From NCBI GenBank assembly GCA_964248365.1, contig CAXTYC010000019.1, positions 35,037 through 99,036 of the forward strand: a DNA stretch of 64,000 nt. The letters run 5' to 3'. Of this stretch, positions 48,607 through 52,029 are shown piece by piece (within the stretch, counting starts at the first letter, position 1; every line of letters begins with the position of its first letter). The translations under genes were made by a program, and so were the position numbers. The DNA comes from an uncultured Chroococcidiopsis sp. (GTDB lineage Bacteria; Cyanobacteriota; Cyanobacteriia; Cyanobacteriales; Chroococcidiopsidaceae). The notes beneath the pieces were generated by a model. It saw only the letters and a list, made by a program, of their open reading frames with translations, did not search any database and had not been told where the DNA came from.

Positions 48607-48663
48607 CTCGCTCCCAGGATACTCCAGGGATCTTCTCGCTCCCAGGCTCAGCCTGAGAGCGAG
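48607..48663. repeat. REP-like CTCGTTCCCAGGCTCNGCCTGGGAACGAG family (variants near 4037, 34790, 41876, 42496, 45361, 49501, 52801, 55033)
   Basis: Recurring imperfect palindromes in intergenic regions. Confidence 0.75.
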
Positions 48664-48896
48664 ATTTTATTATTCAAGCAAGTAGGATGGTTGACGCGTG
48701 TGAATTGCAAGAGATTTAGTAGAACGTATCAAGCACAAGGGGCGATCGCCAACAATAGCCCCGACACCCAATTCTCTTGTGCTAGATTTGAACTGAGGTA
48801 GTTATAATACAAAGCTGTAGTATGGGTTCTGTATGCCCAACTGGTGCGCCTACTTATAGTATGAGCGTATACCGCGTGTGCTATGACTATTTCACC

Positions 48897-48969
48897 GTTT
48901 GATTAGCTCAATTGGAAGAGCTTCTGCCTCAAGGGCAGGATGTTACAGGTTCAAATCCTGTATCAAACT
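48897..48969 (+). ncRNA. tRNA-like RNA 1 (CAA anticodon but short variable loop)
   Basis: Full cloverleaf: GTTTGAT/ATCAAAC, GCTC/GAGC, TCTGC/GCAGG with loop CTCAAGG, ACAGG-TTCAAAT-CCTGT. Confidence 0.8.
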
Positions 48970-48971
48970 CC

Positions 48972-49047
48972 CGAAAGTTAGCTCATTTGGTAGAGCGATC
49001 GGTGTATCGCCGATCGGTAACAGGTTCGACTCCTGTACTTTCCACCA
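48972..49047 (+). ncRNA. tRNA-like RNA 2 (aberrant anticodon arm, C1:C72 mismatch, encoded CCA)
   Basis: GAAAGT/ACTTTC, GCTC/GAGC, GATCGGTG-TAT-CGCCGATC arm lacking U33 and purine 37, ACAGG-TTCGACT-CCTGT, ACCA end. Confidence 0.8.
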
Positions 49048-49049
49048 AA

Positions 49050-49500
49050 ACACCCTAGTCCTGGGTTACGGACACCTTGTTAGGGACAAGGCAACTTCAC
49101 AGCTTAATTAACTGGTGTTGGGAAAAAAACCCAACTGGGAAAAACCCAATACTGATGTTTGTTTTATCACTCTGTCATGCAGGTGTTTTATAACAGTCAA
49201 GGAGCCAGCGCAAATGCAATTCTCCCTAACTTGAGTATGTCCTTCGTTTTCCAAATCCGTCTCTTTACGGAGATTGCTGGAACTGGCAAACTGAACGGCA
49301 TATTTGAGCGTTGTTTGCTGTTTGAGCGATCGCTCAAACAGTAGGGCAATCTTAATCCAGTTTTGGAGAACCTTTTGTCCGCACCGAACTGTAAAACCTT
49401 GCATTGGCAGAGTAAAAAATAGTTTGTATTATAATGTAGTATATTGAAGTAGGATTTGAGCGGGGATTACAAACCGCAAGGCTTGTAGCTATTGGCTGTT
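49050..49500 (+). ncRNA. Putative long structured RNA between the tRNA-like pair and the slipin gene
   Basis: Nested complementarities 49169-49197/49388-49413 and 49204-49225/49269-49287, palindrome 49318-49341, several local hairpins. Confidence 0.5.
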
Positions 49501-49634
49501 CTCGCACTCAGGCTGTGCCTGAGAACGAAAATTTAGAGGCTCAGCCTCTTTTGGCAAAGAAGCTATCAAAAAGACAAATGTTTTTATCCATTTTGAGTTG
49601 GGTGAAGCTACCCAAATTATCTATTCAAATTTCT

Positions 49635-51161
49635 ATGTGGAAAACCTTTTATATTAAACCTAACGAGATTGGAATTTTATATCACCGCAGCGATTTTAAG
49701 AAAATTTTGCAGCCTGGAACTTACACTTATTTTGGTCGCCATTGGCAAGTAATAACTTATGACCTCAACCTGCCAGAAGCTAAAATTGATAATTTAGAAT
49801 TGTTGCTAAGAACCCAAAGCGACGTACTGCAAGAATATCTATTGATTGTTAGAACAACTTTCAATCAAGCTGCTTTAGTACGCTGCGGTCAAAATTGGGT
49901 AAGCGTCGCACCAAATCAACTTCGCGCTTTTTGGCGTGGTTATATTGATGTTGAATCCCACATTTTCAATTTAGAAGAAAGCTTAGAATTACCTACTCAG
50001 TTCGTCCAGCAATTGCGTGGAATCGCCTTAAACGGACTGAAAAAATTCCAAATTTCCGAATCTGAAATTGGTTTACTATACATTCAAAATAACTTTGTTC
50101 GACCTCTTGAAACAGGGGAATATGCTTTTTGGAGTGTAAATAAAGATGTTACAGTGAGGACTCTCAGCCGGATTGTGCCTAACCCAGACTTTCCCCTGGA
50201 AGATGTACTAATTGAAAAACATCCTGATTTTGTCAGCGCTTATTGTGTAATTGTACAATTACAAAATCAGCAAGTGGCAATTGTGCGGTATTTGGGTAAG
50301 GTTATTTCTATTTTGCCACCGACAAGCCGTAAGTTATTTTGGCAAGGTGTGGAAGTGGAAGTTATCGACATCAGCAGCAATGCCAAGTTACCACCTGAAG
50401 GGGTGGCTCAATTACTTTCGGGTTCCAAAGAAGTTCTATTACTGGGTCACAATAGTTTGCATATTTGCGAAGTACCCGCGCAGCACGTTGGCTTGTTATA
50501 TGTCAATCAAGAGTTTCAAGCGCAACTACAGCCAGGAATACACGCTTGGTGGTTGTTTGGACGCTCGTTTCAAACCGAAGTATTTGACTTGCGTTTGCAA
50601 AATATTGAAGTATCCGGTCAAGATATCCTCTCGAAAGATAAAGTACCTCTGCGCTTAAATTTAACTGCTGGTTTCCGTATTCAAGATCCACTCAGAGCAA
50701 AAAACAGTTTGTCAGATATTTCTGGTTTCTTGTACAAAGAAGCTCAATTTGCTTTACGCGCAGCAGTTGGCGAAAAAACTTTGGATGCCTTATTAGAAGA
50801 TAAAGGCGCGATTGATAAAAGTGTAGCTGAATATATTCGTACCAAAAGCGCAGACTATGGAATTGAAGTAGATTCCGTAGGGGTGAAAGATATTATTTTA
50901 CCTGGCGAAATTAAGACTATCTTGAGCAAGGTAGTAGAAGCAGAAAAAGCCGCTCAAGCAAACGTAGTCAGACGTAGAGAAGAAACCGCAGCTACCCGCA
51001 GTATGTTGAATACCGCCAAAGTGATGGAAGATAACCCCGTCGCATTGCGTTTGAAGGAACTGGAGGTGTTAGAGCGAATTGCTGAGAAGATTGATAAGAT
51101 TCAAGTTAATGGGAGTTTGGATAGTATTTTAACCGAGTTGATTCAGATTAATCGGCAGTAG
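49635..51161 (+). CDS. Slipin-family SPFH/Band 7 protein
   Basis: DLRLQNIEVSGQDILSKDKVPLRLN; RREETAATRSMLNTAKVMEDNPVALRLKELE; start reassigned to ATG 49635 (MWKTF). Confidence 0.9.
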   Translation: MWKTFYIKPNEIGILYHRSDFKKILQPGTYTYFGRHWQVITYDLNLPEAKIDNLELLLRTQSDVLQEYLLIVRTTFNQAALVRCGQNWVSVAPNQLRAFWRGYIDVESHIFNLEESLELPTQFVQQLRGIALNGLKKFQISESEIGLLYIQNNFVRPLETGEYAFWSVNKDVTVRTLSRIVPNPDFPLEDVLIEKHPDFVSAYCVIVQLQNQQVAIVRYLGKVISILPPTSRKLFWQGVEVEVIDISSNAKLPPEGVAQLLSGSKEVLLLGHNSLHICEVPAQHVGLLYVNQEFQAQLQPGIHAWWLFGRSFQTEVFDLRLQNIEVSGQDILSKDKVPLRLNLTAGFRIQDPLRAKNSLSDISGFLYKEAQFALRAAVGEKTLDALLEDKGAIDKSVAEYIRTKSADYGIEVDSVGVKDIILPGEIKTILSKVVEAEKAAQANVVRRREETAATRSMLNTAKVMEDNPVALRLKELEVLERIAEKIDKIQVNGSLDSILTELIQINRQ

Positions 51162-51198: not shown

Positions 51199-52029
51199 AT
51201 GAAAATATGGCAGGCTGATTTTTATCGCCGTCCGTTGCGAGATGCAGCAGGACAGTCTTTATGGGAATTGTTAGTTTGCGATTCGACGCGCCAGTTTACA
51301 TATGCAGCGTTTTGTCCCCAGTCGCAAGCAAATGCTAAATGGCTAGTTGAACAGTTCCAGCTAGCAGCGGGTTCGCAACCGCCGGATATAATTCAAGTTT
51401 TCCGTCCTCAGTCACTGAGTTTGATTACAGCAGCTGCACAACAGCTAGGAATTACGGTAGAACCAACTCGGCGTACAACAGCTTTGAAACAGTGGTTAGA
51501 GGAACGCATAGCGTTTTATCGCAGCGGGGAAAATTATACAGGTGAAACTTACAATCCTTTGGTGGATAAACCACCCCCCACGCCATTACCTGAAAATCTG
51601 TGGGGAGAACAGTGGCGCTTTGCTACACTGGCGGCGGGAGATGTTGAGGAGGCTTTTAGGGAACGTCCGATTCCAATTTTGTCAATGCCAGATTTTATCC
51701 TACCATTAAATTTGGGTATAGCATCAACAGTTGCTATTCCTGGTGTGGTAATTTATGGTGGTAGGCGATCGCTACAATTAGCGCGTTGGCTACAACAAGC
51801 TCAACCAGTAGCACTCAATTCGGTTGCAGGTGAGCCATCTGGACTAGTATTAGAAGCAGGCTTGGTAGATCGGTGGATTGTTGCTACATTTGCAGATCCA
51901 GAAGTAGCAGCAGCTGCAAAAGTTTATGAACAGCGCAAACAGCAAAGTCTTGGATTGCACTTTTTACTGGTGCAACCCGATGATTCAGGAATGACTTATA
52001 GCGGCTTTTGGTTGTTGCAGGAGGATTAA
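51199..52029 (+). CDS. Tab2/ATAB2-family RNA-binding protein
   Basis: WQADFYRRP...WELLVCD, PLPENLWGEQWRF, GLHFLLVQPDDSG..YSGFWLL. Confidence 0.9.
   Translation: MKIWQADFYRRPLRDAAGQSLWELLVCDSTRQFTYAAFCPQSQANAKWLVEQFQLAAGSQPPDIIQVFRPQSLSLITAAAQQLGITVEPTRRTTALKQWLEERIAFYRSGENYTGETYNPLVDKPPPTPLPENLWGEQWRFATLAAGDVEEAFRERPIPILSMPDFILPLNLGIASTVAIPGVVIYGGRRSLQLARWLQQAQPVALNSVAGEPSGLVLEAGLVDRWIVATFADPEVAAAAKVYEQRKQQSLGLHFLLVQPDDSGMTYSGFWLLQED

Follow-up and report, generated by a model that had tools for sequence, protein, structure and literature searches.

Through sequence comparison, we favour, with modest confidence, a reading in which RNA 2, the second of two tandem tRNA-shaped RNAs located upstream of a slipin gene in an uncultured Chroococcidiopsis sp., is a docking RNA for a type XIII reverse transcriptase (RT) and not a decoder. 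A retron link is the best explanation of the odd anticodon arm of this RNA: the arm matches the msr hairpin of type XIII retrons, such an apex is rare in the genome, and the arm goes together with the RT across the cyanobacteria. On either side of the pair lie further conserved non-coding RNAs, and together they form a cluster ahead of the slipin gene, called the cassette below. It is probably a variant of the predicted Band-7-associated tRNAs, the new element being the specific retron link. Features found in the window, which is the whole analysed stretch of 64,000 nucleotides, are listed in Table 1.

Table 1. Features of the cassette and its flanks in the window
Feature	Position	Strand	Remarks
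Possible C-terminal remnant of a short type XIII RT	48719..48739	+	VERIKHK vs. VERIKQK in a congener, syntenic place
Predicted extended -10 promoter (TGnTAGATT)	48780..48788	+	Conserved in the upstream alignment
RNA 0, folded RNA of ~100 nt	48795..48896	+	Terminal stem, 3' ACC tail, two-hairpin head; alignment of 38 leaders
TrcR-like direct repeat inside RNA 0	48803..48822	+	Match to a repeat pattern modelled on published boxes; not kept in all relatives
RNA 1, tRNA-like	48897..48971	+	Acceptor stem fixed, closed anticodon arm drifting, 3' end U73-C-C
RNA 2, tRNA-like	48972..49047	+	1:72 mismatch, CCA encoded
RNA 2 closed anticodon arm	48997..49015	+	8-bp stem and 3-nt loop, matches the type XIII msr hairpin
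Predicted compact H-type pseudoknot	49052..49073	+	Directly behind RNA 2; stem ACCC/GGGT
245-nt folded RNA	49169..49413	+	Long terminal duplex, two variable hairpins, G at 49208 in YAGC; candidate retron template
Predicted slipin promoter with TrcR-like direct repeat (49425-49441)	49404..49441	+	
Slipin (Band 7/SPFH) gene, long N-terminal region	49515..51161	+	PF01145, E 2e-29; orthologue of Anabaena alr0740

Structure of the tRNA-like pair

The two cloverleaves described in the original prediction are real. ARAGORN called both at its default threshold over the spans in Table 1, as 'Leu CAA' and 'Ile TAT', and the Rfam tRNA model gave 61.6 bits for RNA 1 and 47.3 bits for RNA 2 (gathering score 29). 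Both units fold as cloverleaves (z -3.2 and -3.1) with D and T arms intact and of canonical consensus; only the D-arm spacing had to be corrected, a single base and not two separating TGG from AGAGC. Two nucleotides lie between position 73 of RNA 1 and position 1 of RNA 2, as described, and position 76 of RNA 1 is position 1 of RNA 2. Further ARAGORN calls obtained in the genome at low threshold were discarded as noise.

tRNA-Leu is identified by a long variable arm and A73. RNA 1 has the CAA anticodon without this identity set, its variable loop being of 5 nt and its position 73 a U, and a normal 85-nt tRNA-Leu(CAA) is present on contig C21 of the same genome. RNA 2 likewise shows the anomalies reported for it, namely C1:C72, an encoded CCA, and G33 instead of U33 in an anticodon arm that forms an 8-bp stem with a 3-nt loop. 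With G33 and C37 the loop is closed (pair probabilities 0.996 and 0.90), and the open 7-nt loop with U33 and purine 37 is absent. RNA 2 is the only one without U33 among the 42 ARAGORN calls of the genome. RNA 1 also closes to a 3-nt loop (C32:G38 probability 0.998, U33:G37 0.81); formal closure by 32:38 and 33:37 alone is not rare, being possible in 14 of the 42 calls, RNA 1 and RNA 2 included.

Kinship with the YrlA-type Y RNAs, which had been brought up for this pair, did not hold. These RNAs (RF02553) share tRNA mimicry with the pair, and the YrlA of M. smegmatis is cut by RNase P and gets CCA (PMC4201824); a TROVE protein is encoded in our genome, and a weak match of 20.7 bits runs across the T arm of RNA 1 and the D arm of RNA 2. 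However, this score is far under the cut-off of 69 bits and spans two tRNA units, and any two tRNAs in tandem would be expected to give such a match. In YrlA the tRNA-like order is circularly permuted, a Ro60-binding stem is present, and the RNA adjoins rsr (PMC4201824), whereas the window units have the normal tRNA order and no adjacent Ro60 gene. As had been noted, rtcB and Ro60 are absent from the window, the two rtcB copies and the TROVE gene being on other contigs, and a better YrlA candidate (35.6 bits) adjoins the TROVE gene on C21. A Y RNA binding Ro60 is thus an extremely unlikely identity of the pair. The C21 candidate itself (L183:2597-2864) has a long closed stem; upstream of the TROVE gene, it overlaps a tRNA-like element of 140 nt.

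The RNA cassette upstream of the slipin gene

The cassette is ordered as predicted extended -10 promoter, RNA 0, RNA 1, RNA 2, pseudoknot, variable hairpins and 245-nt RNA, and this order, with three other conserved RNA elements around the pair, is fixed in many families. The strict extended -10 motif was found in 61 of 90 cassette leaders and the RNA 0 core motif in 103 of 112 cassettes; the RNA 0 fold has z -2.6 in the window, and -0.3 and -0.9 in two homologues. The second stem of the pseudoknot covaries among 66 pattern matches (GTCC/GGAC, GCCC/GGGC, GCCT/AGGC).

The 245-nt RNA is single-copy in the genome and has a fold z of -6.45. Its alignment, made of 34 of the 82 distinct copies, is 93.1% paired with 15 pairs showing double changes, which none of 500 shuffles equalled, and the G at 49208 is invariant in all 107 copies. 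Of 41 relatives, 9 have the long slipin, and it is these 9 and no others that have this RNA. Behind it, TGTAKYA was found within 45 nt in 78 of 107 cassettes, compared with a background of 1%. RNA 0, the pseudoknot and the 245-nt RNA were assigned to no family by the Rfam search at E<=10, and a viral scan for RNA 0 gave 0 matches. GOLLD and ROOL, considered as possible leads, gave no match and were dropped.

The placement of the tRNA-like units fits punctuation between structured RNAs, and they are candidate processing handles.

Several observations were made around the cassette. Nostoc loci such as L074:3477-5795 contain tandem cassettes, one with open CAU loop and one with closed arm, with a short RT between them. 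L034, L035 and L042 have a third tRNA-like unit behind RNA 2; its anticodon arm is short, and after it the pseudoknot motif is repeated. In 41 of 89 loci the neighbourhood of the cassette includes a gene for a 192-aa protein (L099:4358-4936), which the genome of the window has on another contig (G000:C32:40130-40705); the protein matched nothing in Pfam, NCBIfam or PADLOC. Upstream of the cassette, a short sequence at window 48634-48667 also matches other contigs of run X21 and is probably a dispersed repeat.

Conservation of the pair among relatives

We collected 89 slipin-gene loci, with the locus of the window counted and a few records in duplicate. Comparison of the regions upstream of slipin homologues, one of the checks proposed originally, revealed tRNA-like units and the downstream 245-nt folded RNA in 81 of the 85 loci having at least 800 nt upstream of slipin. 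The proposed covariation check was also positive: in the RNA 2 alignment (36 of 64 distinct copies), 99.3% of cells are paired, 7 pairs show double changes, and 0 of 500 shuffles were equal, though relatedness inflates this shuffle control. The compensatory changes are in the acceptor, anticodon and T stems. Pairs 2-7 of the RNA 2 acceptor are formed in 86 to 88 of 88 copies, pair 1:72 is formed in only 13, and CCA is encoded in 73. In RNA 1, the acceptor pairs are kept in 54 to 67 of 67 copies, and odd arms are seen in 13 of the 67. The evidence supports that the pair represents conserved tRNA-shaped RNAs under selection and tied to slipin, not decayed ones.

It is highly unlikely that the units are functionless decaying tRNA pseudogenes or an integration scar. 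The drifting arm of RNA 1, its absence from some cassettes and the loss of the adjacent RT in the window speak for decay, but the compensatory changes in three stems and the fixed order with three other RNA elements speak against it, and for RNA 2 the covariation largely refutes a pseudogene.

The commonest anticodon loop is CUCAUAA, present in 42 of 67 RNA 1 copies and 56 of 88 RNA 2 copies; UGUAUCG occurs in 19 RNA 2 copies, and there are many singleton loops besides. The claim that the elbow is preserved while decoding is lost would apply to the two RNAs of the window and is not supported as a trait of the family, in which CUCAUAA prevails. Since most relatives keep the ordinary CAU loop, the loss of decoding is lineage-specific. 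Of the situation that the original prediction had named as contrary to it, canonical orthologues with random decay here, the random decay was not borne out. G3:U70, the alanine identity pair, was observed in 45 of 88 RNA 2 copies (e.g., L051:5288-5362), and RNA 2 of the window has A3:U70.

We might also consider supernumerary yet working tRNAs, of the kind of the stress-induced, TrcR-repressed L-array of Anabaena PCC 7120. The default ARAGORN calls, the good Rfam scores, the encoded CCA and the TrcR-like boxes agree with this. In the L-array, likewise a set of extra tRNA genes under translational-stress control and with alr0740 in the same regulon (PMC8421152, PMC10272220), 23 of 26 tRNAs are charged in vivo (PMC8421152). 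The L-array tRNAs are mostly charged and serve many amino acids (PMC8421152), however, whereas the window pair has closed loops on a fixed acceptor stem. Across the copies of the cassette, the anticodon varies freely on that fixed stem and C73 is the commonest discriminator; with G33 and the closed loop of RNA 2, with U73 and no long variable arm in RNA 1, and with a regular tRNA-Leu(CAA) on C21, working tRNAs are a very unlikely reading.

It is also quite unlikely that the pair serves as decoys, or as repair substrates, for anticodon nucleases that translational stress induces. In favour are the intact elbow of the window RNAs and the canonical CAU or UUU loops seen in many relatives, and operon tRNAs have been discussed as sponges for toxin RNases (PMC8421152). 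However, both loops in the window are closed to 3 nt and RNA 2 has no U33, so the usual target is missing, and the RT association would be left unexplained. The closed anticodon loop thus speaks against the ribotoxin decoy proposed for the window pair; the open-loop relatives may have such a role.

The closed arm and the msr hairpin

The apex of the closed arm of RNA 2, GGUG-UAU-CGCC, resembles the hairpin of cyanobacterial type XIII msr, GGUG-GAU-CGCC, the first loop base being U in RNA 2 and G in msr. Among 24 copies of the first msr hairpin, GGTG-GAT-CGCC is the commonest apex (9 copies), and TG-GAK-CG fits 21. Counting both strands, the genome contains 6501 hairpins of this build, with 8 pairs closing a 3-nt loop, and only two have this apex: the msr of the retron itself on contig C3, and RNA 2. 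The match was found post hoc, and all counts are inflated by kinship.

As in msr, the closed arm has a fixed UG-NNU-CG core, outside which the paired bases vary together (GCTG/CGGC); different families and scaffolds share this core, and it persists through the compensatory changes. The closed arm is also seen on the RNA 1 scaffold (L045, L075). Units behind full-length RTs (L034, L042, G416, G358, G316) carry the exact GGTGGATCGCC msr apex; these same units have lost the D- and T-loop consensus and kept the hairpin.

For Ec86, the ligand of region Y of the RT is an isolated stem of 8 bp capped by a 3-nt loop; region Y has been studied in two retrons only (PMC6868368). By extrapolation from Ec86 and Ec73, the msr hairpin would be the region Y site in type XIII as well. 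The type XIII clade comprises Mx162, Mx65, Sa163 and Ne144 (PMC7736814, PMC6868368), and the accessible parts of PMC7736814 and PMC13712802 describe type XIII retrons without tRNA-like parts. No earlier description of an msr hairpin carried by a tRNA scaffold turned up in our literature search, with most subscription papers outside its coverage.

Association with type XIII reverse transcriptases

An RT recurs in 25 of the 89 slipin loci and scores best as RT_XIII. Of 112 cassettes, 109 have enough flank for this comparison. An RT or RT fragment ending no more than 350 nt upstream is present for 20 of the 24 that have a closed arm vs. 5 of the 85 others, and three of these five carry apex variants. 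The RT beside the cassette is often a fragment. The arm pattern gave 28 matches in 401 genomes; 7 of them were dropped as chance matches with no cassette there, leaving closed arms in true cassettes of 21 genomes. Twenty of the 21 have an RT at E<=1e-90, compared with 99 of the 401 overall, and the remaining one has an RT fragment. The 21 genomes belong to 6 families, 9 of them to one family, so the counts are not independent.

Five congeners have a short RT directly before the cassette, at the place of the doubtful remnant in the window, whose match is weak (6 of 7 residues, E 0.47). The contig of a relative has 1032 extra bases where the RT is missing, with no match to the RT of one congener at 80%. 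The short RTs form one clade in a quick tree (SH-aLRT 97). They retain the catalytic motif as YADD or YVDD, and mostly also VTG; conservation among them is highest in region Y (70% vs. 53-63%). When RTs were classed as short or full-length by frame length, all 8 short RTs among the best 30 RT-anchored loci had the 245-nt RNA within 1.5 kb and none had the ordinary msr-msd, whereas 13 of the 22 full-length RTs had msr-msd and none the 245-nt RNA within 1.5 kb; other full-length RTs do have the 245-nt RNA. No msr-like pattern match was obtained in the five congeners with short RT, with positive controls run, and no SWIM gene was found in the three congeners tested; SWIM is linked to the cassette in L042. 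A metagenome scan with the short RT as query revealed one locus, and it had no usable cassette.

The 245-nt RNA usually occurs with open loops (76 of 107 cassettes). On the tree of this RNA the closed arm is scattered, with 8 changes of which 4 are forced, and the two are therefore not a fixed pair. A further 80 genomes included 7 with the 245-nt RNA; in 5 of the 7 we detected no type XIII RT, and all five have open-arm cassettes. These genomes fit the docking idea but show that the cassette is also used independently of the RT.

An alternative independent of the RT is that the RNAs are Band-7-associated tRNA mimics that act only as processing punctuation or as cofactors of slipin in RNA repair. 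The msr-like arm would then be a recombination relic from a neighbouring retron, kept since a closed loop bars the ribosome. Cassette and slipin are tightly linked in occurrence (81 of 85 loci, and an identical set of 9 among 41 relatives), the five genomes have the cassette without a type XIII RT, a Band-7-associated tRNA has been predicted earlier (bioRxiv 10.1101/312249), and the orthologue alr0740 is co-regulated with rtcB (PMC10272220). However, any closed loop would suffice for this purpose, yet the UG-NNU-CG core is kept and tracks the RT; all five RT-less genomes are open-arm; and no rtcB was found among the scanned neighbour clusters of 30 representatives. We regard this alternative as one to be taken seriously, although on balance unlikely.

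The published b7a-tRNA is a tRNA-like RNA beside a Band-7 gene in an RNA-repair context, a prediction still unvalidated (bioRxiv 10.1101/312249); no other paper in the collection searched uses the term. The window pair resembles it in adjoining a Band-7 gene. It differs in that the published RNA lies beside rtcB, which the window genome has on other contigs only, and in being a tandem pair within a larger RNA cassette; the accessible part of the published description includes no retron hairpin.

Retron components elsewhere in the genome

A type XIII retron exists in this genome in two places. WGR, SWIM and msr-msd are on C3 (G000:C3:47402-52537), and an intact RT of 467 aa stands alone on C24 (G000:C24:41805-43205; L111:8806-10209) with YADD and RT_XIII E 1e-200. 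An intact clade 10 RT is thus available in trans only, while in congeners the RT adjoins the cassette; linked SWIM and WGR/ARM genes are likewise not at the cassette but on C3 with their own msr-msd. The RNA of cyanobacterial type XIII retrons with SWIM and WGR is taken here as the ordinary msr-msd. The separation of RT and msr-msd may be common among type XIII retrons, since 9 of 22 full-length RT loci have no msr-msd within 1.5 kb.

The ordinary msr-msd on C3 weakens the 245-nt RNA as a candidate for the cognate RNA of the C24 RT. The two RNAs show no global similarity (z about 0.1), and no profile match was obtained. Their junctions, YAGC-GCAA-NUGY in the 245-nt RNA and YAGC-CUU-GCAA-hairpin-UUGY in msr, share only YAGC..GCAA..UGY. 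The 245-nt RNA has the size of an msr-msd, the Mx162 precursor being of 241 nt with the priming G in TAGC, CAGC or GAGC (PMC6868368), and it has a terminal duplex and a candidate priming G in such a context. The recognition hairpin 3' of the priming G is absent from the 245-nt RNA and present on RNA 2. The cassette resembles type XIII retrons in its associated RT and in the arm of RNA 2; it differs in that the hairpin is on a tRNA scaffold, away from the candidate priming G, and in that the gene downstream is slipin and not SWIM or WGR. The 3' end of RNA 2 was also considered as a retroviral-type primer and was rejected, with no covarying binding site seen by eye.

Upstream of the C24 RT (L111:8750-8800), we found AGTAC-N3-AGTACT, which we take to be like the cyanobacterial LexA box, and a similar sequence is at the WGR gene on C3. 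In L159, L163 and L164, the type XIII RTs have a longer N-terminus (TPR in L159) and the msr-msd is behind the gene.

The slipin gene and translational stress

The gene downstream of the pair encodes a Band_7 protein, so it is a slipin gene as described, and the protein is 81% identical to BAB72697, which is alr0740 of Anabaena PCC 7120. alr0739 and alr0740 have been named as YdeI and slipin (PMC9938897). When TrcR is missing, alr0740 goes up 42-fold, and a shift by TrcR has been seen with the alr0739 promoter (PMC10272220); alr0740 is also among the chloramphenicol-responsive genes (PMC8421152). Modelled on published boxes, of which the TrcR site is TGTAGTAT (PMC10272220), the repeat pattern has 40 matches in the genome, two of them at 48803 and 49425 of the window. 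From these two repeats and the TrcR and chloramphenicol response of the orthologue, we infer that the cassette would be induced by stress in this genome.

The N-terminal 300 residues of the slipin (window 49575-50500) look like repeated beta-rich units, and this region had no match in Pfam or PDB. Vault-like repeats were considered for it and set aside, as PDB sequences and the Atlas gave no support. A gene for a Tab2/Atab2 RNA-binding protein lies 37 nt behind slipin (window 51199-52029); it is not among the recurrent neighbours of slipin loci.

Proposed mechanism and significance

Under the docking reading, we infer that the cassette is transcribed as one unit, that RNase P cuts it together with a 3' enzyme, that the RT binds, and that priming occurs at the G at 49208. 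Translational stress would start a single precursor from the extended -10 promoter, comprising RNA 0, RNA 1, RNA 2, the pseudoknot and the 245-nt RNA. RNase P and a 3' trimming enzyme would cut this precursor at the tRNA-like units, RNA 1 likely being a processing handle only. Region Y of the RT would then bind the RNA 2 hairpin, and this docking would put the RT onto the 245-nt RNA, on which a recognition hairpin is lacking; with its retron-like terminal duplex and YAGC guanosine, the 245-nt RNA could be primed at the invariant G. Support is much stronger for docking than for templating.

In the genome of the window, the adjacent short RT has been lost, so the partner would be the intact RT on C24, and the ordinary msr-msd would have RNA 2 as a competitor for it. 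RNA 2 could here be a decoy for the C24 RT or a relic beside it.

The wider arrangement that we might speculate on, and hold only tentatively as a rather doubtful one, is a split retron. The recognition hairpin would be on a tRNA mimic, the 245-nt RNA would supply the priming guanosine and the template, and msDNA would be made only when both meet. Slipin would be the effector, and damage or processing of the tRNA-shaped RNA under translational stress would be the switch.

The proposal is sharply testable with one hairpin, one protein domain and natural open-loop controls, and a model organism is at hand, the orthologous gene alr0740 being already known as induced by translational stress. If the two-piece msr-msd is true, it would bear on retron engineering, as recognition and template could be supplied separately. 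If the docking is true, a tRNA mimic would use its anticodon arm to bind a bacterial reverse transcriptase, and this would join two fields that have so far been apart, the predicted Band-7-associated tRNAs of RNA-repair loci and the type XIII retrons.
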